A stretch of 32,000 nucleotides of DNA, taken from assembly GCF_001457615.1 (NCBI RefSeq), contig NZ_LN831024.1:870001-902000 (forward strand), given 5' to 3'. The translations under genes and the position numbers were made by a program. The notes below the pieces were generated by a model. It was not told the origin of the DNA, did no database searches, and worked only from the letters and a program-made list of their open reading frames with translations. The stretch is from Pseudomonas aeruginosa (GTDB lineage: Bacteria; Pseudomonadota; Gammaproteobacteria; Pseudomonadales; Pseudomonadaceae). Below, in pieces: positions 4,094 through 32,000 of this stretch (its first letter is position 1; every line of letters starts with the position of its first letter).

Positions 4094-4105
4094 GGAAATG
4101 CCTCC

Positions 4106-4909
4106 TCAGACGAAACGGCAGGAGATGCTGCCGAGCAGGTCGTAGTCGACGTGGAAGGTGTCCCCCGGCGCGGCCGCCACCGGGCGGGTGAAGGAGCCGC
4201 CGAGGATCACCTGGCCGGCCTCCAGGCAGACGCCGTAGGGCGCCAGCTTGTTGGCCAGCCAGGCGACGCCCTTGGCCGGGTGGTTGAGCACCGCGGCGGA
4301 GACGCCAGACTCCTCGATCACGCCATTGCGGTAGAGGATCGCCGGTACCCGCCGCAGGTCGATATCGCCTGGCCGCACGGCCCGGCCGCCCATCACCACG
4401 CCGGCGTTGGCGGCGTTGTCGGAGATGGTGTCGAAGACCTTGCGCGTGACTTTCGTTTGCGGGTCGACCTGCTGGATGCGCGCATCGATGATTTCCAGCG
4501 CCGGGATCACCCACTCGGTGGCCTCGAGCACGTCGAACAGGGTGCAGCCCGGTCCCTTCAGCGGCTTGCCGAGGATGAACGCCAGCTCCACCTCGACCCG
4601 CGGCACGATGAAGCGCTGGAAGGGGATGTCGCTGCCCTCCTCGAAGAACATGTCGTCGAGCAAGGCGCCGTAGTCCGGCTCGCTGATGTTCGACGAGACC
4701 TGCATGGCGCGCGAGGTCAGGCCGATCTTGTGGCCCTTGAGCACGCGCCCGTCGGCGATCTTGCGCTCGACCCAGGCGCGCTGGATGGCGTAGGCGTCCT
4801 CGATGGCGATGTCCGGGTAGTCGAGGGAGAACTGCCTTACCTGCTGGCGCGAGCGTTCGGCGGCGTCGAGGCGGTTGGCGGCTTCCTGGATCAGACGGGG
4901 ATCGAGCAT
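4106..4909 (-). CDS. hpaH: 2-oxohept-3-enedioate hydratase (HpaH/HpcG)
   Basis: Internal start [28 protein letters not shown]... (ATG complement at 4909-4907) within the over-long ORF 4106..5674, giving 267 aa. MhpD/HpcG hydratase family sequence ([13 protein letters not shown]..., [12 protein letters not shown]). Confidence 0.92.
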
Positions 4910-15631: not shown

Positions 15632-15658
15632 CTATCGTCCAGCCTGGTCTCCAGGCAG

Positions 15659-16246
15659 TCAGGCTTCGTCGAGAACCCATCGACGAAACGAAAGGAATGT
15701 AGCCTGTGCCGCATCCTGCGCAAGGCCGATGGCTTCGGGGCTGTCGATCTGCCGGGCGAGCTGTTCGAGAAACTCCTGCCAGCGCACCCCGGTTGCCTGG
15801 CCGTAGCCCCGCAACCACTGTAGCGGCAGACCGGGCAGGCGTGGAGCTAGTCGTTTGTAGAGATACGCGCCGCCCAGCGTCGCGCCTTCCATCACGTAGG
15901 CCACCCCGAAGACCTCCGCGGCCCGTGTCGCATTCGGCAGGTCGGCGCAGCGCGGTAGCGCCTCCACCTGCGCGCGGCTCATGCCGCCGGCCAGCAGGTC
16001 GCTTTCCAGCCAGGCGCTCTTGACCAGCCGCGCGTCGGCCCGCAGCGCCGCCGGCCAGCCGCTGCGGTTGTCGCGCAGCGCGCGCTCCAGAGGCTCCAGC
16101 CAGCCAAGGATACGTCCGGCATGGTCGAGGTAGGCGCGGTCGTCGAGATCGTCGTCGCCCAACGGCGAACGGCGGTCCAGTTCTGCGTGCAGGTCACGGG
16201 TGGCGTCGCGGAGTGCGGCGAGGGCTGGCGATGGAGATGGGGACAT
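15659..16246 (-). CDS. bphO: Heme oxygenase supplying biliverdin to BphP
   Basis: Heme-oxygenase family sequence (FGVAYVMEGATLGGAYL). The start is taken at MSPSPSPALAALRDATRDLH (195 aa). An in-frame ATG at 16273 would add 9 aa. Neither start has a good SD, so the start is uncertain. Confidence 0.88.
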   Translation of the reverse strand: MSPSPSPALAALRDATRDLHAELDRRSPLGDDDLDDRAYLDHAGRILGWLEPLERALRDNRSGWPAALRADARLVKSAWLESDLLAGGMSRAQVEALPRCADLPNATRAAEVFGVAYVMEGATLGGAYLYKRLAPRLPGLPLQWLRGYGQATGVRWQEFLEQLARQIDSPEAIGLAQDAAQATFLSFRRWVLDEA

Positions 16247-16321
16247 GAGGTCAGGGCCAGCGATTCGAGGCATGAACGGAAAAGAGTAGCAGGAAGCCGT
16301 ACGCCCGGCTCGGAATAAATG

Positions 16322-16350
16322 GGCATCCCCGCGCGCGGCGCAGGGATGCC
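16322..16350 (-). terminator. Candidate rho-independent terminator after the PpnN-like gene
   Basis: GGCATCCCCGCG / CGCAGGGATGCC form a 12-bp stem (one mismatch) with a 5-nt loop, 14 nt after the stop at 16364. On the minus strand it is followed by CATTTATTCC. Confidence 0.45.
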
Positions 16351-16363
16351 GGAGCGGGCGCGC

Positions 16364-17749
16364 TCAGGCCGCCTCGGTCTGCACCACCCGGTAGCAGGGG
16401 ACGTAGGCCGCGCCGCCGGGCAGCTTCATCCGGTGCTGCTTGACGAAGGCCTGCAGCAGGCGGTCCAGCGGCAGCATCACCGCCGGGTCGCCGTGGATCT
16501 CGTAGGGCCCGTATTGCTCGATCATGCGGATGCCGTTGTCCTTGACGTTGCCGGCGACGATCCCGGAAAACGCGCGGCGCAGGTTGGCCGCCAGTTCGTG
16601 GGGCGGCAGGCTCCGGCTGAGCTGGAGGCTGGCCATGTTCTCGTGGGTCGGCTCGAACGGGCGCTGGAAGCTTTCATCGATCTTCAGCATCCAGTTGAAG
16701 TGGAAGGCGTCGTTGCGCTCGCGGCGGAACTGCTTCACTTCCTTCAGGCCCTGGGCCATCTGCTTGGCCACCTCGGCCGGGTCGTCGATGACGATCCGGT
16801 AGTGGCGCTGCGCCGCATGGCCGAGGGTCGCCCCGACGAATTCATGGAGCTGCTGCAGGTAGGCTTCGGCGCTGCGGGGACCGGTGAGGATGACCGGGAA
16901 GGGCAGGTCCTGGTTGTCCGGGTGCATGAGGATGCCCAGCAGGTAGAGGAACTCCTCCGCGGTCCCGGCGCCGCCGGGGAAGATGATGACCCCGTGGCCG
17001 ACGCGGACGAAGGCTTCCAGGCGCTTCTCGATGTCCGGCAGGATCACCAGTTCGTTGACGATCGGGTTCGGCGCCTCGGCGGCGATGATCCCCGGCTCGG
17101 TCAGGCCCAGGTAGCGGCCGCCGACGATGCGCTGCTTGGCGTGGCTGATGGTGGCGCCCTTCATCGGCCCCTTCATCACCCCCGGTCCGCAGCCGGTGCA
17201 GACATCCAGGCTGCGCAGGCCGAGTTCGTGGCCGACCCTCTTGGTGTACTTGTATTCCTCGCTGCTGATCGAGTGGCCGCCCCAGCACACGACGATCTTC
17301 GGCTCGACGCCGGGGCGCAGCGTACGGGCGTTGCGCAGCAGCTGGAAGACGTAGTCGGTGAGGCCCTGGGAGCTGTCCAGGTCGACGTGCTGGCTGTCCA
17401 GCCCGCTCTGGGTGTAGACGATGTCGCGCAGGGCGCTGAACAGCATCTCGCGGGTGCTGGCGATCATCTCGCCATCGACGAAGGCGTCGGCCGGCGCGTT
17501 GATCAGCTCCAGGCGCACGCCTCGGTCCTGCTGGTGGATACGCACCTCGAAGTCCTTGTAGGCGTCGAGGATGGTCTTGGCGTTGTCGCTGTGGGCGCCG
17601 GTATTGAGGATCGCCAGGGCGCACTGGCGGAACAGTTGGTAGGTCTTGCCGTTGGCGGTTTCGCTCAGTTGTTGCACTTCGCGTTGGGAGAGGGTTTCCA
17701 GCGTGCCTTTCGGACTGACCGAGGCGTTGATCACAGGGCGATGAGACAT
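16364..17749 (-). CDS. ppnN: LOG-family nucleotide 5'-monophosphate nucleosidase (PpnN/YgdH-like; formerly annotated as lysine-decarboxylase-like)
   Basis: Start at MSHRPVINASVSPKGTLETLSQREVQQLSE... (461 aa), chosen over the longer 502-aa ORF. The N-terminus and ELINAPADAFVDG align by eye with E. coli PpnN. The LOG motif PGGAGTAEE and GCGPGVMKGP are present. Confidence 0.88.
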   Translation of the reverse strand: MSHRPVINASVSPKGTLETLSQREVQQLSETANGKTYQLFRQCALAILNTGAHSDNAKTILDAYKDFEVRIHQQDRGVRLELINAPADAFVDGEMIASTREMLFSALRDIVYTQSGLDSQHVDLDSSQGLTDYVFQLLRNARTLRPGVEPKIVVCWGGHSISSEEYKYTKRVGHELGLRSLDVCTGCGPGVMKGPMKGATISHAKQRIVGGRYLGLTEPGIIAAEAPNPIVNELVILPDIEKRLEAFVRVGHGVIIFPGGAGTAEEFLYLLGILMHPDNQDLPFPVILTGPRSAEAYLQQLHEFVGATLGHAAQRHYRIVIDDPAEVAKQMAQGLKEVKQFRRERNDAFHFNWMLKIDESFQRPFEPTHENMASLQLSRSLPPHELAANLRRAFSGIVAGNVKDNGIRMIEQYGPYEIHGDPAVMLPLDRLLQAFVKQHRMKLPGGAAYVPCYRVVQTEAA

Positions 17750-18168
17750 GTGCGATTCCATGCAGGGGACGCGGCGGCGTAGAAGAACCGCCGCATCCGG
17801 ATAAGGGAGCGCCGGGCAGGTTGCGTGCCGGGGGAGAGGGCGATCAGCCGTCGGAGTGGGGCGACGAGGCAACCGTGCGCTGGGGCTTGGCTCCAGGGTC
17901 TTGGTTAAATGTAATAGCGAGAACCTGACTGATCTGACAAGGAAAATCTCGAATTTATCTGTCGCCGGCCTGGCACCGGGGAAATCCTGCCACTAGCCAT
18001 GGGCGAAAAAATCCGGCATCGGCTGGGATAATCGACTCTTCTCCTGATATCGTTGCGTTTCCGCCGGATGCTCGGCCAGTCGAAGGGAGGAACGAAGCAT
18101 GTCGTATGAACAGTCCAGCAGCGTACCTAGCGACTTTCTTTCCTCCTTTTTCCAAGAGCCTGTCATCC

Positions 18169-18678
18169 ATGATCGAACTCAGAACCATCACCCGCGACGA
18201 CTGGGAAACCTGCATTGACCTGAAGGTCGCCCGCCACCAGGCGCACTTCGTCGCTTCCAACCTCTATTCGCTGGCCCAGAGCCGCTTCCTGCCGGGGTTC
18301 CGCGCGGTCGGCATCCACCACGGCGGGCGCATGGTCGGCTTCGCCCTCTACGGCCCCGACGCCGACGACGGCCACTACTTGCTCTACCGCCTGATGATCG
18401 ACCGCCGCTACCAGGGCAAGGGGCATGGCCGCGCCGCCCTGCAACGGATCATCGCCAGCGTGCGCCGGACGAGGCGGCGCAGCGATCGCCTGATGGTCGC
18501 CTACGCCGTCGACAACGATGTGGCCCGCCAGCTTTATCGGGATGCCGGCTTCGTCGAACAGGGCCTCGCGCCCTGGGGCGAGACGATGGCCTGCCTGATG
18601 CTGCCGGAGCCGTCCCATCGCTCCGGGAAGGTCGCCGGAGCGCCGGGCGGGCGTGCAGCGCACGGCGTCCCGGCGTAG
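18169..18678 (+). CDS. GNAT-family N-acetyltransferase (diamine/spermidine acetyltransferase-like, PA4114-like)
   Basis: Start taken at MIELRTITRDDWETCIDL, a typical GNAT N-terminus. The acetyl-CoA motif RLMIDRRYQGKGHGRAAL is present. The in-frame ATG at 18106 would add 21 low-complexity residues; see the upstream-ORF finding. Confidence 0.85.
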   Translation: MIELRTITRDDWETCIDLKVARHQAHFVASNLYSLAQSRFLPGFRAVGIHHGGRMVGFALYGPDADDGHYLLYRLMIDRRYQGKGHGRAALQRIIASVRRTRRRSDRLMVAYAVDNDVARQLYRDAGFVEQGLAPWGETMACLMLPEPSHRSGKVAGAPGGRAAHGVPA

Positions 18679-18737
18679 AATCGCGGGATTCGGCAGTTCC
18701 CTCCAATACCTATAACGACCATCCAACGCACATCGCC

Positions 18738-18768
18738 GCCCCGGACCCTTGCGTCCGGGGCGTTTTCC
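18738..18768 (+). terminator. Rho-independent terminator after the GNAT gene
   Basis: Perfect 9-bp stem GCCCCGGAC / GTCCGGGGC with a 6-nt loop, followed by GTTTTCC. Confidence 0.6.
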
Positions 18769-18829
18769 GTCGCGTGGCGAGGGTCGCGGGACCTGCCCGT
18801 CCGCCCCCTGCTCCGGAACCGAACGCCCC

Positions 18830-20020
18830 ATGGACAGCACCTCCGAAACCCGCAGCGGCAGCTGGCTGAGCGTGATCGCCCTGGCCCTGGCCGCCTTCAT
18901 CTTCAACACCACGGAGTTCGTCCCGGTCGGCCTGCTCAGCGACATCGGCCACAGCTTCGAGATGCCTACCTCGCAGGTCGGCCTGATGTTGACCATCTAT
19001 GCCTGGGTGGTGTCGCTGGCCTCGTTGCCGATGATGCTGCTGACCCGCAATATCGAGCGGCGCAAGCTGCTGGTCGGGGTATTCCTGCTGTTCATCGCCA
19101 GCCACGTGCTGTCCGGGCTGGCCTGGAGCTTCCAGGTGCTGATGCTCAGCCGGATCGGCATTGCCTTCGCCCACGCGGTGTTCTGGGCCATCACCGCTTC
19201 GCTGGCGGTGCGCGTGGCGCCGCCGGGACAGCAGGCCAAGGCGCTAGGGCTGCTGGCCACCGGCACCACCCTGGCGATGGTCCTGGGCATCCCGCTGGGG
19301 CGGGTGGTTGGCGAGGCCCTGGGCTGGCGTACCACCTTCATGGCCATCGCCGGACTCTCGGTGCTGACCCTGCTCTACCTGGCGCGCTCCCTGCCGCTGC
19401 TGCCAAGCCAGAACTCCGGTTCCCTGCGCAGCCTGCCGATGCTGTTCCGACGCCCGGCGCTGGTTTGCCTGTACGTGCTGACCGTGGTGGTGATCAGCGC
19501 CCAGTTCACCGCCTACAGCTACATCGAGCCCTTCGCCAAGCAGGTGGCGCGGATGAGCGGCGAGGCGACCACCCTGCTGCTGCTGTTGTTCGGCGGCGCC
19601 GGGATCTTCGGTTCGATCCTCTTCAGCCGCTACAGCGAGGCTTTCCCGCGAGGCTTCCTGCTGGCCGCGATCCTCGCCTTGGGCAGCAGCCTGGCGCTGC
19701 TGCTGCCGCTGTCCGCGCAGCCGACCTGGCTGATGGCGCTCAGCCTGCTCTGGGGCATGTCGATCATGTGCTTCGGCCTGGCCCAGCAGTCCCGCGTCCT
19801 GCGCCTCGCCTCGGACGCCACCGACGTGGCCATGGCGCTGTTCTCCGGCCTGTACAACGTCGGCATCGGCGCCGGCGCGCTGCTCGGCAGCGTGGTCAGC
19901 GAACGCATGGGCCTGGCCTCGATCGGCAACGTCGGCGCCGTGCTGGCGCTGGCCGGCCTGCTGCTCGCCCTGTTCGCCGCACTGCGCTACGCGGAGGCGC
20001 TGAAAAGCACGTCGTTGTGA
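18830..20020 (+). CDS. MFS transporter, DHA1 / sugar-efflux (SotB/YdeA-like) type (PA4113-like)
   Basis: Start taken at [40 protein letters not shown] (396 aa). About 12 TM segments. The N-terminal [12 protein letters not shown] motif is typical of the SotB-like subfamily. Confidence 0.88.
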
Positions 20021-20147
20021 GCGGTCATACCTGGGGTCGGATGATTCGGCGGAGGAATCCGCCCGCTTGATCTAGTCTTCTGTGACGAAAAGGCGCAGGG
20101 AGTGCGGGATTGCCCCGCGCCGGGCCGGCGCAGGGACGGAATATCGG

Positions 20148-23100
20148 GTGAACGTACAACAGAGCAAGTTCAGGCTGAGCCGCTGGGCGGGCGCGACACT
20201 GGCGCTCGGACTGCTGCTGTCCGGGCTGGGCGCCTGGGGGCTGGCGCTGGTCAACGAGCAACAGGCGCGGATGGCGCTGGAACGCGAGGCGGAACTGCTG
20301 GCCGAGGCGGTGACCCGCCGCGTGGAACTCTACCAGTATGGCTTGCGTGGGGTGCGCGGTGCCTTGCTGACGGCGGGCGAGGCGCACATCGACCGCGAAC
20401 TGTTCCGCCGCTACAGCCTGACCCGCGACATCGACCGCGAGTTTCCCGGCGCCCGCGGCTTCGGCTTCATACGCCGGGTGGCGGCCGCCGACGAGGCCGG
20501 GTTCCTGCGCCAGGCGCGGGCCGACGGCCAGCCGGAGTTCCGCATCCAGCAACTGACTCCGCACGATGGCGAGCGCTACGTCATCCAGTACATCGAGCCG
20601 GTGGCGCGCAACGGCCAGGCGTTGGGCCTGGACATCGCCTCGGAAGCCAATCGCCGGGAGGCCGCCCGCGCCGCCCTGGAGACCGGGCAGGTGCGCCTGA
20701 CGGGGCCGATCACCCTGGTCCAGGCCAGCGGCTTGCGCCAGCAATCGTTCCTCATCCTGATGCCGATCTACCGCAGCGGCATCACTCCACCGCCGGGGCC
20801 CCAGCGCGAACTCGAAGGCTTCGGCTGGAGCTATGCGCCGCTGCTGACCGGCGAGGTGCTGGCCGGGTTGCCCATCGACAATGCGGCGATCCACCTCGAA
20901 CTCAGCGACGTCACCGGCGACGGCGCTGCCGTACCCTTCTTCGTCAACGGCGCCGCGGCGCCGGCTCAACGCCTGTTCGGCCACATGCTGCGGCGGGAGA
21001 TCTACGGTCGGCACTGGCAGATGGCGTTCAGCGCACTGCCGCTGTTCGTCCAGCGCCTGCACCAGCCTTCGCCGCGCATCCTGTTCCTGGCCGGCAGCCT
21101 GGTCAGCCTGTTGCTGGCGGCGCTGGTCAACGCCAGCGCCCTCGGCCGCCAGCGCCGGCGTCGGGAGGCGGCGACCCAGGCGCGGCTGGCGGCGATCGTC
21201 GGCAATTCGGCGGACGGCATCATCGGCGTCGGCCTCGACGGCGTCATCAGCGACTGGAATCGCGGGGCCGAGGCGTTGTTCGGCTACCGCGAGGAGCAGG
21301 CGGTCGGGCGGCGGGTGGTGGACCTGCTGGTGCCGCCATCCAAGGAGAACGAGGAACTCGACATCCTCGCCCGCATCGCCCGTAAAGAACAGGTGGTCAG
21401 CTTCGATACCGTGCGCCGGCACCAGGATGGCCACCTGCTCGACGTGGCGGTGACCGTCTCGCCGATCCTCGGTCCGGACGGCGGCGTGGTCGGCGCCTCG
21501 AAGACCGTACGCGACATCTCCGCGAAGAAGGCCGCCGAGGCCCGCATCCGCGAGCTCAATACCGGCCTGGAGCACCAGATCGCCGAGCGTACCGCCGAAC
21601 TGCGTCGGTTGAACGTACTGCTCGGCAGCGTGCTGCAGGCGGCGTCCGAGGTGTCGATCATCACCCTCGACCGCGACGGCATCATCAGCGGCTTCAATCT
21701 CGGTGCCGAGCGGATGCTCGGCTACCGCGCCGACGAGGTGGTCGGCAAGGCCTCGCCGACCCTGCTGCACAGCGAGCGGGAGTTGCTCGCCCGCGGCCAG
21801 GAGCTGGGCGAGGAGGGTTTCCGCGTGCTGGTGGCGCGGGCCGAACAGGAGGGCGCCGAGACCCGCGAATGGACCTATCTGCGCAAGGACGGCTCGCCGC
21901 TCAGCGTGACGCTTTCGGTTACCGTCCTGCGCGACGAGGCTGGGGCGATCAACGGCTACCTGGGCATCGCCGTCGATGTCACCGAATGGCGCAACGCCGA
22001 GCGCGAGATGGCCGCGGCGCGCGACCAGTTGCAAATGGCCGCCGACGTGGCGCGCCTGGGCATCTGGCGCTGGAACCTGGCCGACGACAGCCTGCAGTGG
22101 AACGAGCGCATGTGCGAGCTGTATGGCCAGCCGCTGGCGTTGCGCGACGGCGGCCTGGTCTACGAGCATTGGCGCAGCCGCCTGCATCCGGAAGACCTCG
22201 AGCGCACCGAGGCCAGCCTGCGCGCGGCGGTGGAGGGGCGCGGCAACTACGATGTGATCTTCCGCGTGGTGCTGCCCGACGGCGGCATCCGCTTCATCCA
22301 GGCCGGCGCGCAGGTCGAGCGCGACGCCGACGGCAACCCGCTGCAGGTCACCGGGATCAATATCGATATCACCAGCGACCAGCAACTGCAGGCGCGCCTG
22401 CGCGAGGCCAAGGAGCAGGCGGACGCCGCCAGCGCGGCGAAGTCGTCGTTCCTGGCGAACATGAGCCACGAGATCCGCACGCCGATGAATGCCGTGCTGG
22501 GCATGCTGCAACTGGCCCGGCAGACCGATCTCAACGAACGCCAGCGCGACTACCTGGACAAGGCCAGCTCGGCGGCAACCTCGTTGCTCGGCCTGCTCAA
22601 CGACATCCTCGACTACTCGAAGATCGAGGCCGGCAAACTGGTCCTGGAAATGCTCCCCTTCGAGCTGGAGCCGCTGATGCAGGACCTGGCCGTGGTGCTC
22701 TCCGGCAACCAGGGCGACAAGGACGTCGAGGTGATCTTCGACATCGATCCCGAGCTGCCCAGCGCGGTGGTCGGCGACCGCCTGCGCCTGCAGCAGATCC
22801 TCATCAACCTGGCCGGCAACGCACTGAAGTTCACCGCCCGCGGGCACGTCCTGGTGAGCTTGCGGCGTCTGGCGCACGACGCCCACCTGGTGCGCCTGCG
22901 GGTGCTGGTGGCGGACACCGGCATCGGCATCAGCGCGGAACAGCAGCAGCGCATCTTCGAAGGTTTCACCCAGGCCGAGGCGTCCACCTCGCGACGCTTC
23001 GGCGGCACCGGCCTCGGCCTGTTCATATGCAAACGCCTGGTCGACCTGATGGGCGGTGAATTGCGGGTCGAGAGCGCGCCGGGCAGCGGTAGCCGGTTCT

Positions 23101-24401
23101 GGTTCGACCTGGACCTCGACGTCGCCCACGACCAACCGCTGCGTGCGGCCTGCCCCGGGGCCGGCGAACCGCTGCGGCTGCTGGTGGCGGACGACAACCT
23201 GGTAGCCGGCGAGCTGCTCGAACGCACGGTCGGCGCCCTCGGCTGGCGCGCCGACTGCGTCGGCAGCGGCAGCGAGGCGGTGGCGCGGGTCCAGGCGGCG
23301 ATGGCCGAGGGCCGTCGCTACGACGTGGTGCTGATGGATTGGCGCATGCCCGATCTCGACGGCCTCAGCGCGGCGCAACTGATCCGCCAGTTGCAGGGCG
23401 ACCTGCCGCCGCCCATGGTGATCATGATCACCGCCTATGGCCGCGAGGTGCTGGCCGATGCGCGCGACCACAGCGCGCCGCCCTTCGTCGATTTTCTCAC
23501 CAAGCCGGTCACGCCCAAGCAACTGGCCGACTCGGTGCTGCATGCGTTGCACGGCGAACAGGGCGCCCCGGCCAACCCGCCGCCGCGCCCGGTGGAGCGC
23601 ACCCAGCGGTTGCGGGGCGTGCGTCTGCTGGTAGTGGAGGACAACGCGCTGAACCGCCAGGTCGCCGCCGAGCTGTTGAGCAGCGAGGGCGCCCGGGTGG
23701 CCCTCGCCGACGGCGGGCTGGCGGGCGTTCAGCAGGTGCTGGAGGCGAGCGTGCCGTTCGACGCGGTGCTGATGGACATGCAGATGCCGGATATCGATGG
23801 TCTCGAGGCGACCCGGAGAATCCGCGCCGACGGGCGCTTCGCCGGGCTGCCGATCCTGGCCATGACCGCCAACGCCTCGCTGGCCGACCGCGAAGCCTGC
23901 CTGGCGGCGGGCATGAACGACCATGTGGCGAAGCCGATCGACAAGGAGCGCCTGGTGCTTTGCCTGCTCGGTCATCTCGGCAGGAGCGGCGCCAGGGGCG
24001 CGCCGGCAACGGCAGCGGACGCGGGCGAACTGGTCGAGGCGCGGGGCGATATCGTCGGGCGTTTCGGCGGCAGCCTGGAGCTGATCGTCCAGGTGTTGCG
24101 GCGCTTCGTTCCGGACATGCAGGACCTCTTCGCCCAGCTCGAACGCCAGCTCGGCGAGGGCGATGTCCAGGGCAGCGCCGCGACCCTGCATACCATCAAG
24201 GGCAGCGCTTCCACCGTTGGCGCCAGCGCCCTGGCCGGCCGTGCCAGCGAGCTGGAGCAGGCCCTGCGCCGCGCCGATCCGCTGCGCGGCATGGAAATCC
24301 TCGCCGGCATCCGCCTCGACGAACTGCGCACCCTGTGCGATGCCTGCCTGCTCCGCCTGCAGGCGATGTTCGGCGACGTGCAGGCGGAGTCGGCGAGCTG
24401 A
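20148..24401 (+). CDS. Hybrid sensor histidine kinase: CHASE - TM - PAS x3 - HisKA/HATPase - REC x2 - Hpt (PA4112-like)
   Basis: - Start: GTG at 20148 (VNVQQSKFRLSRWAGATLALGLLL, N-terminal TM) is preferred; the GTG at 20082 is an alternative.
- Sensor: periplasmic CHASE-like region (YIEPVARNGQALGLDIASE), a second TM and three PAS repeats.
- Kinase core: H-box SHEIRTPMN and G-box GTGLGLFICKRL.
- Receivers: DWRMPDLDG and DMQMPDIDG.
- Hpt: HTIKGSASTVGA. Confidence 0.92.
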   Translation: MNVQQSKFRLSRWAGATLALGLLLSGLGAWGLALVNEQQARMALEREAELLAEAVTRRVELYQYGLRGVRGALLTAGEAHIDRELFRRYSLTRDIDREFPGARGFGFIRRVAAADEAGFLRQARADGQPEFRIQQLTPHDGERYVIQYIEPVARNGQALGLDIASEANRREAARAALETGQVRLTGPITLVQASGLRQQSFLILMPIYRSGITPPPGPQRELEGFGWSYAPLLTGEVLAGLPIDNAAIHLELSDVTGDGAAVPFFVNGAAAPAQRLFGHMLRREIYGRHWQMAFSALPLFVQRLHQPSPRILFLAGSLVSLLLAALVNASALGRQRRRREAATQARLAAIVGNSADGIIGVGLDGVISDWNRGAEALFGYREEQAVGRRVVDLLVPPSKENEELDILARIARKEQVVSFDTVRRHQDGHLLDVAVTVSPILGPDGGVVGASKTVRDISAKKAAEARIRELNTGLEHQIAERTAELRRLNVLLGSVLQAASEVSIITLDRDGIISGFNLGAERMLGYRADEVVGKASPTLLHSERELLARGQELGEEGFRVLVARAEQEGAETREWTYLRKDGSPLSVTLSVTVLRDEAGAINGYLGIAVDVTEWRNAEREMAAARDQLQMAADVARLGIWRWNLADDSLQWNERMCELYGQPLALRDGGLVYEHWRSRLHPEDLERTEASLRAAVEGRGNYDVIFRVVLPDGGIRFIQAGAQVERDADGNPLQVTGINIDITSDQQLQARLREAKEQADAASAAKSSFLANMSHEIRTPMNAVLGMLQLARQTDLNERQRDYLDKASSAATSLLGLLNDILDYSKIEAGKLVLEMLPFELEPLMQDLAVVLSGNQGDKDVEVIFDIDPELPSAVVGDRLRLQQILINLAGNALKFTARGHVLVSLRRLAHDAHLVRLRVLVADTGIGISAEQQQRIFEGFTQAEASTSRRFGGTGLGLFICKRLVDLMGGELRVESAPGSGSRFWFDLDLDVAHDQPLRAACPGAGEPLRLLVADDNLVAGELLERTVGALGWRADCVGSGSEAVARVQAAMAEGRRYDVVLMDWRMPDLDGLSAAQLIRQLQGDLPPPMVIMITAYGREVLADARDHSAPPFVDFLTKPVTPKQLADSVLHALHGEQGAPANPPPRPVERTQRLRGVRLLVVEDNALNRQVAAELLSSEGARVALADGGLAGVQQVLEASVPFDAVLMDMQMPDIDGLEATRRIRADGRFAGLPILAMTANASLADREACLAAGMNDHVAKPIDKERLVLCLLGHLGRSGARGAPATAADAGELVEARGDIVGRFGGSLELIVQVLRRFVPDMQDLFAQLERQLGEGDVQGSAATLHTIKGSASTVGASALAGRASELEQALRRADPLRGMEILAGIRLDELRTLCDACLLRLQAMFGDVQAESAS

Positions 24402-24471
24402 ACCCCGGCGCGGTGGCCAGTCCCGCCAAGGATTCAGGCGGACCCGGGGCTCGCCTGCATCCGCTGCGGCC

Positions 24472-24505
24472 TGTAGGGCGAATAACGCCATGGGCGTTAT
24501 CCGCC
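24472..24505. repeat. REP (repetitive extragenic palindrome) element
   Basis: TGTAGGGCGAATAACGCCATGGGCGTTATCCGCC: an imperfect palindrome of the P. aeruginosa GTAGGGCGGATAACGC...GCGTTATCCGCC type. It sits between the convergent kinase gene and the 132-aa ORF. Confidence 0.7.
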
Positions 24506-24564
24506 GATACTCCTGAAGCCCGCCCAGGTCTTGAGCGACATCCTCTTCCTGTCGTTCAGTACCT

Positions 24565-24963
24565 TCAGGCGTCGCGCAGCAGGTCATGGGCGTTGAGCAG
24601 GGCGTAGGCGACTTCCGGGCGCTTCTCCAGGCCGCGGCGGATGGCGGCGGGAATCGCCTGGCGGGTCTTGCGGCAGAGCCCCGGCTGCTCCTCGAAGCGC
24701 ATGCGGATGCCGCGCATGCTGCGCACCTCGCCGAAGGCCGGGGCGATCCGCAGGCGGATGCCCAGTTGTTCCTCCATGCGCCGCAGCAGGTGTTCCAGGT
24801 CTTCCAGGCTGCGCAGGGCTTCCAGGCGAGCGGCCAGGCGCTGCTCTTCCTGGCGGGTCAGGAGGAGGATGCGACGGTCCGCGCCGGGCGCCTCCAGGCG
24901 CTCGCGTTCGCAGACGCAGGCGCCGGGCGGGCAGGGCTGGCGGAGGGGCGGGGAAGCGCTCAT
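24565..24963 (-). CDS. Conserved hypothetical protein (PA4111-like), 132 aa
   Basis: Strong GC3 bias across the whole frame, for example CTG GAA GCC CTG CGC AGC CTG GAA GAC CTG. The N-terminal PCPPGACVCERE is followed by a predicted helical Arg/Glu-rich region. The SD is weak, so the start is uncertain. Same strand as ampC, 64 nt downstream. Confidence 0.6.
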   Translation of the reverse strand: MSASPPLRQPCPPGACVCERERLEAPGADRRILLLTRQEEQRLAARLEALRSLEDLEHLLRRMEEQLGIRLRIAPAFGEVRSMRGIRMRFEEQPGLCRKTRQAIPAAIRRGLEKRPEVAYALLNAHDLLRDA

Positions 24964-25027
24964 GGCACCATCATAGCCAGGACCGGCGTCCCGCGCCGCT
25001 ACGCTCCGTCGCCCTCGCGAGCGCGCT

Positions 25028-26347
<1,320 letters not shown>

Positions 26348-26353
26348 TTAGAA

Positions 26354-26367
26354 AAATTTGGAGCAGA
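26354..26367. promoter_or_regulatory. Putative AmpR (LysR-type) binding box in the ampC-ampR intergenic region
   Basis: AAATTTGGAGCAGA, whose reverse complement is TCTGCTCCAAATTT. This matches the AmpR box reported for the P. aeruginosa ampC promoter, from memory. It overlaps the ampR SD (GGAG at 26360-26363). Confidence 0.55.
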
Positions 26368-26369
26368 GA

Positions 26370-27260
26370 TTGGTTCGACCCCATTTGCCGCTGAACGCCC
26401 TGCGCGCCTTCGAAGCTTCGGCCCGGCACCTGAGCTTCACCCGCGCGGCCATCGAGCTGTGCGTGACCCAGGCGGCGGTCAGCCACCAGGTGAAGAGCCT
26501 CGAGGAGCGTCTCGGCGTGGCCCTGTTCAAGCGTCTGCCGCGCGGCCTCATGCTGACCCACGAGGGCGAGAGCCTGCTGCCGGTGCTGTGTGACTCCTTC
26601 GACCGCATCGCCGGCCTGCTGGAACGTTTCGAGGGTGGCCACTACCGGGACGTGCTCACCGTCGGCGCGGTCGGAACCTTCACGGTCGGTTGGCTGCTGC
26701 CGCGGCTGGAGGACTTCCAGGCGCGCCATCCCTTCATCGATCTGCGCCTGTCCACCCACAACAACCGCGTCGACATCGCCGCCGAGGGGCTCGACTACGC
26801 GATCCGCTTCGGCGGCGGCGCCTGGCACGGCACCGAGGCGCTGGCGTTGTTCGAGGCGCCGCTGACGGTGCTCTGCTGCCCGGAGGTCGCCGCCCAGTTG
26901 CACAGTCCCGCCGACCTGCTGCAGCACACCCTGCTGCGCTCCTACCGCGCCGACGAGTGGCCGCTGTGGTTCCAGGCGGCCGGACTGCCGGCGCACGCGC
27001 CACTGACCCGGAGCATCGTCTTCGACACCTCGCTGGCCATGCTCGAGGCGGCCCGCCAGGGTGTCGGCGTGGCCCTGGCGCCGGCGGCGATGTTTGCCCG
27101 GCAACTGGCCAGCGAGAGCATCCGGCGTCCGTTCGCCACCGAAGTGAGTACCGGCAGCTACTGGCTGACGCGCTTGCAGTCGCGGGGGGAGACCAGCGCG
27201 ATGCTGGCGTTCAGGGAGTGGTTGCTGGAGAGGGCTGCCGTTGAGGCGCGGGGGAGATAA
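26370..27260 (+). CDS. ampR: LysR-type transcriptional regulator of ampC
   Basis: TTG start at 26370 gives (M)VRPHLPLNALRAFEASARHLSFTRAAIELCVTQAAVSHQVKSLEERLG (296 aa), with GGAG 6 nt upstream. The track ORF begins 4 codons earlier, at the TTG at 26358. Divergent from ampC. D135 and G154 are unaltered. Confidence 0.95.
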   Translation: MVRPHLPLNALRAFEASARHLSFTRAAIELCVTQAAVSHQVKSLEERLGVALFKRLPRGLMLTHEGESLLPVLCDSFDRIAGLLERFEGGHYRDVLTVGAVGTFTVGWLLPRLEDFQARHPFIDLRLSTHNNRVDIAAEGLDYAIRFGGGAWHGTEALALFEAPLTVLCCPEVAAQLHSPADLLQHTLLRSYRADEWPLWFQAAGLPAHAPLTRSIVFDTSLAMLEAARQGVGVALAPAAMFARQLASESIRRPFATEVSTGSYWLTRLQSRGETSAMLAFREWLLERAAVEARGR

Positions 27261-27276
27261 CGGTTATGCAGGCGAT

Positions 27277-27663
27277 TCAAGTGTCGATGAAGAAGTAATC
27301 ACCTTCCTCGCGCCTTTCTTTATACGCTCGGGCTCTCCCAAGGTTGATACGGTTTGAGGCGTTGGGGTTGTGATTGGAATTGCTGACGGCGTGGTGGATA
27401 TGGACCGGCTCGTCGGCGTTGCTGATCGCTCCGCTAAGCGTCACTCCCAGGCTGGCGGCATAGGCCCGGCGTGCCGCAACGATCTCGCTCTCGAGCATGC
27501 CTGCTTTCCCTGCTGCGGCAACGACGGCAAGTTCGCATAGGCGGCCAGCCTTCCTCGGGGAAACCCTCAGGTCGGCGCCTGCGGACCACAGGGCAAGCAG
27601 CGCTTTGGATGGAGCACAGCCATTTCTGCTGCGCTCTTCGATTGTCTCCAGGAGCGGACTCAT
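27277..27663 (-). CDS. Orphan hypothetical protein, 128 aa, with atypical composition
   Basis: ATG preceded by AGAGG (4-nt spacer). A sigma70-like TTGCTT-N16-GATACT lies on the minus strand (27725-27720 / 27703-27698). By my hand count GC3 is only about two thirds, clearly lower than the neighbouring genes by eye. I recognise no family motif. Confidence 0.45.
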   Translation of the reverse strand: MSPLLETIEERSRNGCAPSKALLALWSAGADLRVSPRKAGRLCELAVVAAAGKAGMLESEIVAARRAYAASLGVTLSGAISNADEPVHIHHAVSNSNHNPNASNRINLGRARAYKERREEGDYFFIDT

Positions 27664-27754
27664 ATGGCCTCTTGAAAACTGTCGGTGGATTGCCAGCAGT
27701 ATCGACGATGGTGCGCTTAAAGCAATGCGGAGCAGGCGGAGATTGTGGCGAAAC

Positions 27755-27786
27755 GGCGGATAACGCTTCGCGTTATGCGCCCTACG
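27755..27786. repeat. REP element
   Basis: GGCGGATAACGCTTCGCGTTATGCGCCCTACG: the same REP family as 24472 and 31535, with one stem mismatch. It lies just beyond the HD-GYP gene stop. Confidence 0.65.
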
Positions 27787-27816
27787 GGAGCGGTGCCCGG
27801 CGTTGCCGGCGGAAGG

Positions 27817-29061
27817 CTACGGCTTTTCGGTTCCCGCGTCGAAATACGATCCGCCGTTGCTCGGCAGTCCCGTCCACATCTCGTCGAGATTGCGGAAGTT
27901 CCAGGCCTCCGCCGGCTCGAAGCCGACGATTCGGTCGGTCTGTCCGGCCCTACCCAGGTCTATCACCTGCTGCGGGATCGGCACCTTCGAGCGGGCCGAG
28001 AAGAATACCTTGACCCGTGGCGTCAGCAGCGAGCGGCCGTGTTGCTCGAGGACCACGCCGAGGCGCCCGCTTTCCAGCCTGACCAGCGCGCCGACCGGGT
28101 AGATGCCCACTGCCTTGACGAAGGCGCGGAACACCTGCGGGTCGAAGTGCCCGTTCCATTCGGCCATGCGCCGGATCGCCTCGGCGGCGTTCCAGCCCTT
28201 CTTGTAGGGACGGTCGGAGGTGATCGCGTCGTAGACGTCGCACACCGCGCCCATTCGCGCCAGCAGGCTGATCTGCTCCTGCGCCAGGCCGAAGGGGTAG
28301 CCGGTGCCGTCGATGCGCTCGTGGTGGTGCAGGCAGACATCCACCACCAGGGCGCTGACCTGGCGGCAATCGAGCAGCATCCGCGCGCCGTTCTGCGGAT
28401 GCCGGCGAACCAGGCCGAACTCCGGGTCGGTGAGCTTGCCGGGCTTGTTCAGGATCGGATCGGGCACCGCCATCTTGCCGATGTCGTGCAGCAGCCCGGC
28501 CAGCCCCGCCTCGCGTACCAGCGGGTCGGGCAGTTCGAGCTGGCGGGCGAGGGCGATCATCAGCGCACAGACCGCCACCGAATGCATGTAGGTGTATTCA
28601 TCCGAGGTCTTCAGCCGTACCAGGCTGAGCAGCGCGTTGGGATGGCGCAGCACCGAGGCGGAGATTTCGTCCACCAGGTCCGATGCATGCGCGGTATCGA
28701 TGGCCTGGCCCATGCGCGCGTCGCGGAACATGCTGACCACGGCGGCCTTGGCACGGCTGCAGAGCAGGGCGGCGTGGCGGATTTCCTCCTCCAGGGCGAC
28801 CCGCGCCGGCGAAGGGCCGGCCGGCATGGTGACCGGCAGGACCGCAGCGGCCGAGACCGCCGCTTCCTCCGGGAGGTCGAGGCCCTTGCTGGCATCGATC
28901 CAGACTTCCTTCACGGCGCTTTCGCGCAGGCGCTGCAGGTCGGCCTGGCTGTCGAGCAGGAAGCCACCTCTTTTCCAGAACGGGTGGTCCAGCCACGAGC
29001 CGCAAAGGCTCTGGACGAACATACCGAGGCGAAGCTGGGTTACCGGAATGCGTTTCAGCAC
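27817..29061 (-). CDS. HD-GYP domain cyclic-di-GMP phosphodiesterase with an N-terminal DUF3391-like domain (PA4108-like)
   Basis: 414 aa, GTG start. MLKRIPVTQLRLGMFVQSLCGSWLDHPFW is the DUF3391-type N-terminus. The HD motif LLHDIGK and the GYP motif HHERIDGTGYP are present. Confidence 0.93.
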   Translation of the reverse strand: MLKRIPVTQLRLGMFVQSLCGSWLDHPFWKRGGFLLDSQADLQRLRESAVKEVWIDASKGLDLPEEAAVSAAAVLPVTMPAGPSPARVALEEEIRHAALLCSRAKAAVVSMFRDARMGQAIDTAHASDLVDEISASVLRHPNALLSLVRLKTSDEYTYMHSVAVCALMIALARQLELPDPLVREAGLAGLLHDIGKMAVPDPILNKPGKLTDPEFGLVRRHPQNGARMLLDCRQVSALVVDVCLHHHERIDGTGYPFGLAQEQISLLARMGAVCDVYDAITSDRPYKKGWNAAEAIRRMAEWNGHFDPQVFRAFVKAVGIYPVGALVRLESGRLGVVLEQHGRSLLTPRVKVFFSARSKVPIPQQVIDLGRAGQTDRIVGFEPAEAWNFRNLDEMWTGLPSNGGSYFDAGTEKP

Positions 29062-29174: not shown

Positions 29175-29252
29175 GTATCGCTTTGTATCCATGCGCGGTT
29201 TCGATACCTCCGGCGTACAAATCCACGTGTCGGGCGATACACCCCCGATACA
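29175..29252. promoter_or_regulatory. Phased GTATC/GATAC pentamer repeats in the HD-GYP / efhP divergent promoter region
   Basis: GTATC occurs at 29175 and 29185 (10-bp spacing). GATAC occurs at 29203, then CGATACA at 29235 and 29246 (11-bp spacing). That is five copies of one pentamer or its complement within 78 bp of GC-rich DNA. Confidence 0.3.
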
Positions 29253-29384: not shown

Positions 29385-29852
29385 ATGTCCGTTTTCGATT
29401 CGCGTCAAAAGACTTCCGCCAGCCTGCTCGGTGCCGTACTGGTGGGGGGAATGCTGCTCGGCGGTTCGGCGTTCGCCGTCGAGCCGCTGGGCCAGGGGCT
29501 GCAAGTGGCGGCGGCGAGCGCCGGCGAAGGCAAGTGCGGAGAAGGCAAGTGTGGTAGCGGCGGCTCCGCGAAGACCCCGACCAAGGCCGGCGCCGAGGGC
29601 AAGTGCGGGGAGGGCAAGTGCGGCGACGCCTCCTTTGCCCGAACCGACACCGATCACGATGGCAAGGTCTCGCGCGCCGAGTTCCTCGCGGTGGCCAAGG
29701 ACCGTGCCGGTGAGTTCGACAGCATCGATAGCGACCATGACGGCTTCATTTCCGAAGCCGAGGCCTACGAACACCTGCGCAAGACCTACGAGGCCAACGG
29801 CAAGCCGATGCCCGCCGGGCTGTTCAGCAAGCTGGAGCAAGGCCGGCACTGA
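29385..29852 (+). CDS. efhP: EF-hand calcium-binding protein EfhP with a Sec-type signal/anchor and four EGKCG cysteine motifs (candidate MNIO substrate)
   Basis: The ATG at 29385 has GGAGAAG 4 nt upstream; the track ORF from 29130 is over-extended. 155 aa: [34 protein letters not shown] (signal-like). [10 protein letters not shown] spans residues 48-57 and 71-80. Two canonical 12-residue EF loops follow: [12 protein letters not shown] (88-99) and [12 protein letters not shown] (115-126). Confidence 0.93.
29526..29624 (+). repeat. Two tandem doublets of the 15-nt unit encoding EGKCG (4 copies)
   Basis: The units are gaaggcaagtgcgga, gaaggcaagtgtggt (29526-29555), then gagggcaagtgcggg, gagggcaagtgcggc (29595-29624). 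All are in the efhP frame. Confidence 0.9.
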
Positions 29853-29867
29853 GCCTTTCCACACCCT

Positions 29868-29915
29868 GGCGGCGCCCTCTCTTTCCCCTGGGAAAGCGGG
29901 GGCGTCGCCGTTTCC
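29868..29915 (+). terminator. Long imperfect hairpin between efhP and the MNIO gene (candidate attenuator / partial terminator)
   Basis: GGCGGCGCCCTCTCTTTCCC (29868-29887) pairs with GGGAAAGCGGGGGCGTCGCC (29890-29909). The stem has about 17 pairs including 2 G-U, with 1 mismatch. It is followed by GTTTCC and then the MNIO SD GGAG (29916-29919). Confidence 0.4.
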
Positions 29916-29926
29916 GGAGCTATCCC

Positions 29927-30757
29927 ATGACCCTGATCGACAACGCCGCCGGCCTCGGCCTGAGGCGCGGCCTGCTTCCGCAACTGCTGGCGATGGCGCC
30001 CGGCGCGGTGGACTTCCTCGAATGCGCGCCGGACAACTGGATCGGCGTCGGCGGTGCCTTCGGTGCCGACCTGGAGCGCCTGGTGGAGCGCTTTCCACTG
30101 ACCTGCCACGGTCTCTCGCTGTCCCTCGGCGGCTCCACACCGCTGGATGCCGCCTTCATCGAGCAGACCCGACGCTTCCTCGTCCGCCACCGGGTCGCGT
30201 TGTACAGCGAGCACCTCAGTTACTGTTCCGACGATGGCCATCTCTATGATCTGTTGCCGCTGCCGTTCACCGAGGCCGCGGTGCGTCACGTCGCGGCGCG
30301 CATCCGCGAGGCGCAGGAACGCCTGGAGCGGCGCATCGCGGTGGAGAACATTTCCTACTATGCAGCGCCGTACCGGGAGATGAGCGAGATCGAGTTCGTC
30401 AACGCGGTACTCGACGAGGCCGACTGCGACCTGTTGCTGGACGTCAACAACCTGTTCGTCAACGCCTGCAACCACGGCTACGACGCCCTCGACTTCCTCG
30501 CCCGGCTGCCGCCCGGGCGGGTCGCCGTCTACCATGTGGCGGGGCACTACGACGAGGCGCCGGACCTGAAGATCGACACCCATGGTGCCGCCGTGAAGCC
30601 CGGCGTCTGGGCCTTGCTTGGAGCCGCCTATCGTCGCTTCGGCGTGCGCCCGACCCTGCTCGAGCGGGACTTCAACTATCCGCCGCTGGGCGAACTGCTG
30701 CTGGAAGTGGAGCAGATCCGCCAATGGCAACGCGACGAGGGACGCCGTCATGGATGA
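29927..30757 (+). CDS. DUF692 / MNIO (multinuclear non-heme iron oxidase, MbnB/BufB/HvfB-like) enzyme (PA4106-like)
   Basis: 276 aa. Family landmarks by eye: [66 protein letters not shown] (TIM-barrel metal ligands). Confidence 0.93.
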
Positions 30758-31505
30758 GCGCCTGCGCCAACAGCAGTTCAGCCTCGCCCGGCACCTGCGC
30801 GACCCGCTTGGCAATGCGCCGCCGCCGGACATCGAAGAACGTCGCCTGCGGGTCTACCGCGAGCTGTTCTACAACGCCATCGAAGGCCTCCTTGCCAGCG
30901 GCTTCCCGCGCTTGCGCGGGCTGCTTGGCGAGCAGCAGTGGCATGGCCTGGTGCGCGAGTTCTATCGCGAGGAGAGAAGCCATACCCCCCTGTTCACCCG
31001 TATCGCCGGGGTCTTCGTCGACTACCTGCGGCAGCGGGGCGAGTATCGGCCGGCGTGGCAAGCCGAGTTGGCCCACTTCGAATGGAGCGAAACGCGCCTC
31101 TACCTGGCCGAGCCCGACGATCCGCCGTATCGGCGTGAAGGCGACCTGCTCGACGGGGTGCCGCTGCTGTCGAGCCTGGCGCTGCCGCTGGGCTATCGCT
31201 GGCCGGTGCATCGGCTCGAAGAGGACGTCGCGCTCGCCGAAGCGCCTGCGGAACCGACCCTGCTGTTGATGCACCGCGATTCCTCGCATCGCGTGCATAC
31301 CGCGCGCCTGACTCCGCTGGCCTACCGCCTGCTGGAGTCGCTGGCGAGACGGCGCCTGAGAGGGCGCGAGCACCTGGCGGCGCTGGCGCTCGAGGCGCGG
31401 AGTGCGCCCGGAGCGCTCGACGCGGCGGGGCTGGAGTTGCTGGCAGCGTTGCGGACCCAGGGTGTCGTGCTCGGAACCCTGGAACGCGATTGGGCGGGCG
31501 GATGA
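30750..31505 (+). CDS. DUF2063-family partner protein (MbnC/BufC/HvfC-like, putative substrate-recognition subunit) (PA4105-like)
   Basis: Start [19 protein letters not shown] at the ATG at 30750, overlapping the MNIO gene by 8 nt, giving 251 aa. The DUF2063-type N-terminal region is present ([22 protein letters not shown], FxREF..., [10 protein letters not shown]). The C-terminal domain is compatible with an RRE/winged-helix-like fold. Confidence 0.88.
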
Positions 31506-31534
31506 CGACGCAGCCCTTGTGGAGTCGATGCATC

Positions 31535-31690
31535 GGCGGATAGCGCCGTTGGCGCTATCCGCCCTACGTGGTGGGTGGGACGGTCTTGGTGTAGGGCGGA
31601 TAACCGCTTGCGGTTATCCGCCGGGGTGGGTCCGGTGTATCGGCGAATAGCGCCGTTGGCGCTATTCGCCCTACGCGGTGGGTGGGATGG
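31535..31690. repeat. Cluster of three REP elements in alternating orientation, with a flanking ~50-bp direct repeat
   Basis: REP copies lie at 31535-31568 (GGCGGATAGCGCCGTTGGCGCTATCCGCCCTACG), 31591-31622 (inverted: GTAGGGCGGATAACCGCTTGCGGTTATCCGCC) and 31642-31675 (GGCGAATAGCGCCGTTGGCGCTATTCGCCCTACG). The first and third are each followed by GGTGGGTGGGA(C/T)GGT. Confidence 0.75.
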
Positions 31691-31705
31691 TTCTGGCTTG
31701 CTGTG

Positions 31706-31740
31706 AAAAACCCCGGAGGCGATCGCGTTCCGGGGTTTTT
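31706..31740. terminator. Bidirectional rho-independent terminator
   Basis: AAAAACCCCGGA (31706-31717) and TCCGGGGTTTTT (31729-31740) are perfect complements with an 11-nt loop. This gives a GC stem plus a U-tract on both strands, between the convergent DUF2063 and DoxX genes. Confidence 0.65.
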
Positions 31741-31757
31741 CCGTGGCTGGCCGAATC

Positions 31758-32000
31758 CTAGCGGGACAGGCCCAGGCGCCGCCCGAGCCAGTGGTCCAGG
31801 CTCAGCTTCCCCGCCCCCGCCAACAGCAGCGGCAGCAGCGCCGCCAGGTAGATCGCCGGGAGCTTGAAATTGCCGAAGCCGTGGTCGGTGATCGAGTAGC
31901 CGCGGGCCAGTTCCGCCAGGCTCGACCACTCCGCCGGCCAGTGTACGGCGGCGGTCGCCACCAGAGTGACGACGATCAGCACCAGGGCGGTCAGGCGGGT
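31758..32000 (-). CDS. DoxX-family inner-membrane protein, C-terminal part (gene continues past the right edge)
   Basis: The C-terminal ...[34 protein letters not shown] is the typical DoxX ending (GxGxxSLD). The frame stays open upstream of the GTG at 31982 to the window end, so the true start is probably outside the window. Confidence 0.7.

Follow-up and report, generated by a model that had tools for sequence, protein, structure and literature searches.

The EF-hand protein EfhP of Pseudomonas aeruginosa binds Ca2+ in recombinant form, with a dissociation constant of 13.7 uM (PMC9132961), yet its gene stands directly upstream of two genes of a metallophore maturation type. The question raised by this locus is whether EfhP is also the substrate of the two encoded enzymes. 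We analysed a stretch of 32,000 nt (contig NZ_LN831024.1, positions 870,001 to 902,000; hereafter the window, to whose positions all coordinates refer unless another locus is named). An earlier account made from the letters of this DNA (the sequence-only reading) had proposed that a DUF692 (MNIO) enzyme and its DUF2063 partner convert the four cysteines of EfhP into copper-binding heterocycles. Family membership and synteny lend strong support to that proposal, and we hold it to be very probable that the locus represents a metallophore operon of the hvf type ('EGKCG/oxazolin', 'captophorin') in P. aeruginosa, with EfhP modified by the HvfB/HvfC pair.

As a new idea the proposal does not stand, as the link between EfhP and the maturases is already known as prediction and annotation, and the system belongs to a known kind and reveals no new mechanism. 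RefSeq/UniRef names the exact EfhP protein 'HvfA family oxazolone/thioamide-modified RiPP metallophore' (RiPP, ribosomally synthesised and post-translationally modified peptide) and the exact enzymes 'HvfB family MNIO-type RiPP peptide maturase' and 'HvfC family RiPP maturation protein'. The hvf operon was noted as conserved in P. aeruginosa in PNAS 2024 (PMC11252979), and the four EGKCG repeats were noted by the EfhP laboratory in mBio 2024, with iron sensing proposed (PMC11559002). Leprevost et al. described proteins in which an unstructured EGKCG domain is joined to two EF-hands, and named EfhP as an example. Their chimaeras are the same object, with a hydrophobic N-terminus before a short EGKCG domain, two EF-hand_5 domains after it, and MNIO and DUF2063 genes downstream; we see no structural difference from EfhP. 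That study was purely bioinformatic and did not include the copy-number variation between alleles, the 9-residue junction or the BfmR link given below. Nor is the 'protein-scale' precursor a novelty, as the sequence-only reading had it, since family precursors of 31-506 residues have been described already.

Composition of the efhP-hvfB-hvfC operon

The EfhP sequence has an N-terminus like a signal peptide and four cysteines (C51, C56, C74 and C79), every one of them inside an EGKCG motif, just as the sequence-only reading had described; the motifs are arranged as two doublets. By inspection, a basic n-region (R7, K9) precedes a 14-residue hydrophobic core, after which comes A-F-A31|V32, and SignalP 5 predicts a signal peptide (PMC9132961). 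A search with profile hidden Markov models, which that reading had suggested, matched all three proteins to Hvf-family models. EfhP scores 33 bits against the HvfA-family domain NF050137.2 KCGExKCG_twice (cut-off 19.5), in two stretches within residues 48-81. Its C-terminal half scores above the Pfam gathering thresholds for EF-hand_1, EF-hand_5, EF-hand_6 and EF-hand_7, and the paired loops are canonical 12-residue DxDxDG...E EF-hand loops. An AlphaFold2 model built from 30 homologues has a mean predicted local distance difference test score (pLDDT) of 56. The score stays under 50 for residues 1-76 and averages about 67-81 over the EF-hand pair (81-140), which is moderately confident; the pair begins at residue 81, its first helix starting right after G80. 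The region between signal peptide and EF-hands is thus predicted to be disordered.

The assignment of the downstream genes to DUF692 and DUF2063 was borne out. The MNIO protein matches PF05114 at E = 1.3e-99 and reaches 411.6 bits against the HvfB equivalog NF003818 (cut-off 360). It falls below the cut-off of the BufB equivalog NF050167 (257.6 bits against 310), and is therefore not BufB, and far below that of the MbnB equivalog TIGR04159 (34.9 bits against 325). The nearest solved structure is PDB 3BWW (E = 1.9e-72), and metal-binding motifs including LLERDFN are conserved. Mutation of the HvfB site-3 ligands N175, D242 and H244 abolishes activity; judged by inspection only, which is how all individual metal ligands were assigned, the DVNN and DTH motifs of the window protein seem to hold their equivalents. 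We predict an iron- and O2-dependent enzyme oxidising EGKCG cysteines. The partner protein combines a DUF2063 N-domain (PF09836, 1.6e-23) with an RRE-like NGO1945_C domain (PF22106, 3.7e-19), scores 251.8 bits against HvfC NF050145 (cut-off 142) and has a homologue of known structure in PDB 3DEE (5e-5).

The layout of the three genes also agrees with what had been read from the sequence. The intergenic distance between efhP and the MNIO gene is 74 nt (29853-29926), and the MNIO and partner genes overlap by 8 nt within ATGGATGA. Besides EfhP the operon holds no small open reading frame (ORF) bearing cysteines. The positions of all features are collected in Table 1.

Table 1. Features of the efhP locus and its surroundings, with positions in the window.
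Feature	Position	Strand	Remarks
efhP (PA4107-type)	29385..29852	+	155 aa; ATG at 29385, stop ends 29852; HvfA-family precursor fused to EF-hand pair
EfhP signal peptide	29385-29477		residues 1-31
EfhP EGKCG doublet 1	29526-29555		residues 48-57
EfhP EGKCG doublet 2	29595-29624		residues 71-80
15-nt tandem repeats in efhP	29522-29551 and 29595-29623
EfhP EF-loop 1	29646-29681		residues 88-99
EfhP EF-loop 2	29727-29762		residues 115-126
HvfB-family MNIO gene (PA4106-type)	29927..30757	+	276 aa; stop TGA 30755-30757
HvfC-family partner gene (PA4105-type)	30750..31505	+	251 aa; ATG at 30750
Five GATAC(A) half-sites	29175..29252		78 bp; efhP / HD-GYP divergent promoter region
Published BfmR box GATACAAAGC	29180-29189	-	GATACAnnGC
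Direct GATACA pair	29236 and 29247	+	11 bp apart
Two 71-nt REP-like direct repeats	31519-31589 and 31626-31696		85% identical; long GC-rich palindrome in each
Bidirectional intrinsic terminator hairpin	31705..31741		A5-CCCCGGA...UCCGGGG-U5; common to efhP-hvfB-hvfC and hvfX operons
hvfX/DoxX gene (PA4104-type), 3' part	31758..32000	-	convergent; truncated by the window edge
HD-GYP/DUF3391 gene	27817-29061	-	divergent from efhP
LysR (AmpR-like) regulator gene	26358-27260	+
Class C beta-lactamase gene	25028-26221	-
Bacteriophytochrome histidine kinase gene	13445-15631	-

EGKCG units in homologues and alleles

Homologues were searched with the EF-hand domain of EfhP alone (residues 81-155) as query, with one genome per species, and the best 80 loci (L001-L080) were compared. 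EGKCG units lie N-terminal to EF-hand 1 in all 80 homologues, from 2 to 8 of them per protein and mostly as doublets, and 268 of the 270 cysteines are inside [EA]GxCG. At 30 of the loci HvfB and HvfC genes follow 60-141 nt downstream of the precursor gene. The order of precursor, MNIO and partner, together with the identical 8-nt overlap, is also present in a P. putida-type locus (L081) and in P. sichuanensis (L084), that is in three lineages including the window. As order and overlap recur in these two loci, and the order in 30 of the 80, the arrangement is more than chance.

The P. sichuanensis operon is syntenic with that of the P. putida-type locus. The precursor that it encodes (L084 5666-5944) has 92 aa and five cysteines but lacks EF-hands; it shares its signal peptide and linker with EfhP, and HvfB and HvfC genes follow. 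Hence EfhP contains, in its N-terminal half, a genuine precursor of the HvfA type, and the EF-hand pair behaves as a module gained or lost on it. In P. sichuanensis the EF-hand version is encoded as an orphan at another place in the genome (L020), which points to two substrates being served by a single maturase pair.

The distance from the last cysteine to the first Asp of EF-loop 1 is exactly 9 residues in 80/80 homologues (C79 to D88 in the window, 29619-29648), and the junction EGKCG-DAS[FM]A-x-TD is invariant. Such constancy points to a constraint, structural or functional, that ties the last heterocycle site to the first Ca2+ site. It also bears on the alternative that the modified N-terminal segment is cut off as a small peptide metallophore, the EF-hands being a follower or chaperone domain or a separate Ca2+ sensor. 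Whether EGKCG products remain whole or get digested is described as unsettled (PMC13097082), the segment between signal peptide and EF-hands is predicted to be disordered, and syntenic operons encode precursors without EF-hands, all of which would fit such a cleavage. On the other hand, no protease is encoded in the operon, and the invariant junction with its fixed spacing argues for a constrained covalent fusion and not a cleavable linker. We regard release of a peptide as most improbable.

At the remaining 50 of the 80 loci no maturase is encoded within 4 kb, and most of these orphans are P. fluorescens-type proteins with one doublet. A short EfhP of 130-136 aa with a single doublet is encoded at about 40 P. 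fluorescens-type loci (within L036-L080), the gene lying at about 3800-4210 of the locus. Judged from sequence, their conserved flanking genes are NDH-2-like on the upstream side and ClpB-like on the downstream side; no metal-related neighbour is conserved, and no MNIO or HvfC gene occurs within 4 kb. The genes flanking L054 are unique to that locus. A co-variation test, asking if homologues with no adjacent MNIO gene lack EGKCG, was answered in the negative. Since the motif is retained in all 80, this test neither supports nor refutes modification.

Within P. aeruginosa, efhP alleles (proteins P0049, P0003, P0054, P0061, P0063 and P0067) vary by whole 15-nt EGKCG units. The window allele, with 4 units and 155 aa, was found on 617 contigs, and the allele with 3 units (150 aa) on 325. 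Further alleles have 5 units (160 aa), 2 units (145 or 132 aa) or 1 unit (127 aa). Slippage or recombination at the tandem repeats looks like the source of this variation, which alters the number of candidate modification sites from strain to strain.

Expected modification and location of EfhP

The chemistry that the sequence-only reading had ascribed to HvfBC, oxazolone/thioamide formation, needs correction, as oxazolin has been re-assigned to 5-thiooxazoles by two groups. HvfBC changes the mass by -4 Da per Cys and gives a heterocycle that binds Cu(I) and absorbs near 302 nm (PMC11252979); the expected chromophore lies at about 302-305 nm and not up to 340 nm as had been assumed. Loss of alkylatable thiols, which had been put forward as a readout, would be misleading, because 5-thiooxazoles are readily alkylated by iodoacetamide (PMC13097082). 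HvfBC acts on fragments down to one single module (PMC11252979), while FonBC acts only where the EGKCG repeat is double and the residue following Cys is small (PMC13097082); both EfhP modules have the double repeat and the small residue. So far every EGKCG peptide tested, namely oxazolin, fontiphorin, gonophorin and bulbicupramide, was modified by its cognate B/C pair. The HvfB-HvfC heterodimer arises only on co-expression, a direct B-C fusion is more active, and the active cofactor is a mixed-valent diiron centre which forms only with HvfC present.

The closest comparison is the oxazolin system HvfA/B/C/X of nontypeable Haemophilus influenzae (PMC11252979; bioRxiv 10.64898/2026.07.17.739211), which shares with the P. 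aeruginosa locus the Sec signal peptide, the EGKCG modules, the HvfB-family MNIO, the HvfC partner and the DoxX-like HvfX. Its product shows -4 Da per Cys, absorbs at about 302 nm and binds Cu(I). Unlike EfhP, HvfA has 95 aa, three modules and an extra N-terminal disulfide and is without EF-hands, and the P. aeruginosa locus differs by its convergent hvfX, which is paired with a ferric-reductase-like gene, and by BfmRS control. The 'captophorins' fontiphorin and gonophorin (PMC13097082) are likewise made from EGKCG precursors, by an MNIO-PME1 heterodimer which forms 5-thiooxazoles, and their minimal substrate is a double repeat like the EfhP modules. They have no Ca-binding domain, however, and FonA has seven modification sites. 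Bufferins (Buf1, DUF2282, and Buf2, with BufB/BufC; PMC11626156, PMC12452194) belong to a closely related MNIO sub-cluster with a DUF2063-RRE partner; they too have Sec signal peptides, and their products are 5-thiooxazoles with a copper-buffering role, but precursor fold and motifs differ from EfhP. 5-Thiooxazoles are thus the products in bufferins, fontiphorin, gonophorin and bulbicupramide as well as in oxazolin. Methanobactin (MbnA/MbnB/MbnC) is a distant relative where an MNIO and its partner also oxidise precursor cysteines to Cu-binding heterocycles. Its product is an oxazolone/thioamide absorbing at 340/394 nm, with a leader peptide instead of a Sec signal and a role in copper acquisition.

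Applied to the window, these systems suggest the following course of events. It should be noted that the mechanism is inferred throughout for EfhP, complex formation and Cys oxidation having been demonstrated only for homologues. The translationally coupled HvfB-family MNIO and HvfC partner would form a 1:1 cytoplasmic complex, which with mixed-valent diiron and O2 would carry out a four-electron oxidation of each EGKCG Cys to a 5-thiooxazole. In the cytoplasm EfhP would thereby lose 4 Da per Cys, or 16 Da in total. The apo protein, still unfolded, would be exported by Sec and cleaved after A31. Its thiooxazole pairs would then take Cu(I) in the periplasm and its EF-hands Ca2+, so that the mature protein may carry two thiooxazole pairs and two Ca2+ sites.

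The exported form is open to one variation, in which the N-terminal segment is an uncleaved signal anchor that tethers EfhP to the inner membrane, with repeats and EF-hands in the periplasm and possibly beside HvfX/PA4103/BfmS. If so, the localisation would differ and the chemistry would be the same. Older predictors (TMHMM and SignalP 4.0) favoured a transmembrane segment at this N-terminus, Leprevost et al. reported 'a predicted transmembrane helix' in the chimaeras, and HvfA is reported as membrane-bound in H. influenzae. Yet the hydrophobic core has just about 14 residues and is followed by (A/V)-x-A at the equivalent position in 72 of the 80 homologues; further, the SignalP 5 result predicts cleavage (PMC9132961), and E. 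coli cleaves the signal peptide of HvfA (PMC11252979). Hence a tethered EfhP seems unlikely to us, and we keep to a cleaved, exported protein.

Several points, the older transmembrane predictions among them, weigh against this overall picture of a modified and exported EfhP. EfhP reaches only 24.2 bits against the HvfA equivalog NF050188, with a cut-off of 95, and is therefore a member of the HvfA family and not an HvfA orthologue. The absence of adjacent maturases at 50 of the 80 loci is another, and as these orphans keep perfect EGKCG doublets the motif can persist without an adjacent enzyme. Common P. aeruginosa alleles contain an isolated single EGKCG, which FonBC left unprocessed in vitro (PMC13097082). 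In the published biochemistry EfhP was always residues 33-155, produced alone in E. coli, and Ca2+ was still bound; it follows that the protein was studied in vitro in unmodified form. Our literature search found no experiment showing Cys modification on EfhP, in line with the statement of the sequence-only reading that this had not been shown for the P. aeruginosa protein, and no copper link of the two-component system BfmRS.

In another alternative the EGKCG cysteines would remain without modification in vivo and serve as ligands in thiolate or disulfide form, for example in Fe or Fe-S sensing, with MNIO and HvfC irrelevant or inefficient. Iron sensing through the four cysteines is what PMC11559002 proposes, the retention of EGKCG at the 50 loci with no adjacent maturase is consistent with it, and unmodified HvfA too binds several Cu(I) ions (PMC11252979). 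Against this stand the Hvf-family scores of all three genes, the lack of any other small Cys-bearing ORF in the operon, the modification of all tested EGKCG peptides by their cognate B/C pairs, and the maturase pair found elsewhere in the genome of at least one orphan-bearing species. Taken together we find unmodified cysteines very unlikely, and modification by the HvfB/HvfC pair the preferred interpretation.

Regulation, surroundings and implications

The promoter region shared by efhP and the divergent HD-GYP gene contains three of the four GATACA hexamers of the whole window. These hexamers, the published BfmR box included, make two tandem pairs at 10-11 bp spacing, as expected of an OmpR-family regulator such as BfmR. 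A consensus sigma-70 scan found no promoter. Cao et al. reported that BfmR bound a PA4107 promoter fragment (-490 to -131) in an electrophoretic mobility shift assay and also binds the PA4103 promoter, and that PA4103-PA4107 were all upregulated more than 10-fold in a bfmS deletion mutant (PMC4148453). In the explanation preferred here, BfmR switches on the efhP operon together with the convergent PA4103-hvfX operon.

Similar gene sets are found in other pseudomonads. The P. putida-type locus encodes EfhP, HvfB and HvfC, followed by a convergent DoxX gene, a histidine kinase and a response regulator (L081 12075-14693), and in P. paraeruginosa (L001 6066-8198) HvfX is followed by a PA4103-like membrane protein with weak MsrQ/ferric-reductase similarity and then by a BfmS-like kinase. 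It appears that the hvf genes and the two-component system are inherited together, and as the P. putida-type layout matches, the linkage to a BfmRS-like system is conserved. HvfX/DoxX and the ferric-reductase-like PA4103 are putative accessory membrane partners.

Only the last 80 aa of HvfX are in the window, and this fragment scores 66.7 bits against NF050144 HvfX (cut-off 80). The full-length P. paraeruginosa orthologue (L001 6066-6575), 98.75% identical over the fragment, reaches 155 bits and matches Pfam DoxX. Downstream of hvfC the convergent intergenic region holds the two repeats that resemble repetitive extragenic palindromic (REP) elements, the first of which folds at -33.9 kcal/mol (z = -2.4). 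For the terminator hairpin shared by both operons the folding energy is -25.6 kcal/mol in the plus-strand transcript (z = -4.0) and -23.9 kcal/mol in that of the minus strand (z = -4.75), and none of 200 shuffles folded equally well. The consensus terminator scan gave no match at this hairpin because its loop exceeds 8 nt.

The wider neighbourhood (13445-29061) matches the P. aeruginosa ampC region. Two ORFs on the minus strand gave no Pfam match: one of 1520 aa (20025-24587; searched at E<=1e-5), the frame of which may be false, and one of 128 aa (27277-27663), between the LysR and HD-GYP genes.

Compared with what was known, our additions are modest. They consist of the fixed spacing between the last cysteine and the EF-loop, the polymorphism from 1 to 5 units, the abundant and stably inherited orphans, the syntenic precursor without EF-hands and the conserved linkage to a two-component system.

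Further, we speculate that EfhP could be a dual-metal periplasmic sensor, in which Cu(I) on the thiooxazole doublet, 9 residues before EF-loop 1, is allosterically coupled to Ca2+ and feeds BfmRS. We find this rather unlikely. If it were true, the 'calcium' phenotypes of efhP mutants in virulence and iron-uptake regulation would depend on modification by the MNIO and on copper or redox state, the signal could return through the co-inherited BfmRS-type system, and the 1 to 5 EGKCG units would tune the response between clinical lineages.

For a decade EfhP has been studied as a pure calcium sensor controlling virulence and iron uptake in a priority pathogen. The need to re-examine it has already been raised in print and annotation, and the remaining value lies in experiment and not in the idea. 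If native EfhP has four copper-binding thiooxazoles, its Ca2+ affinities, interaction partners and mutant phenotypes would need re-examination, and the possible polarity of the gentamicin-omega efhP replacement on hvfB and hvfC would have to be reconsidered as well.

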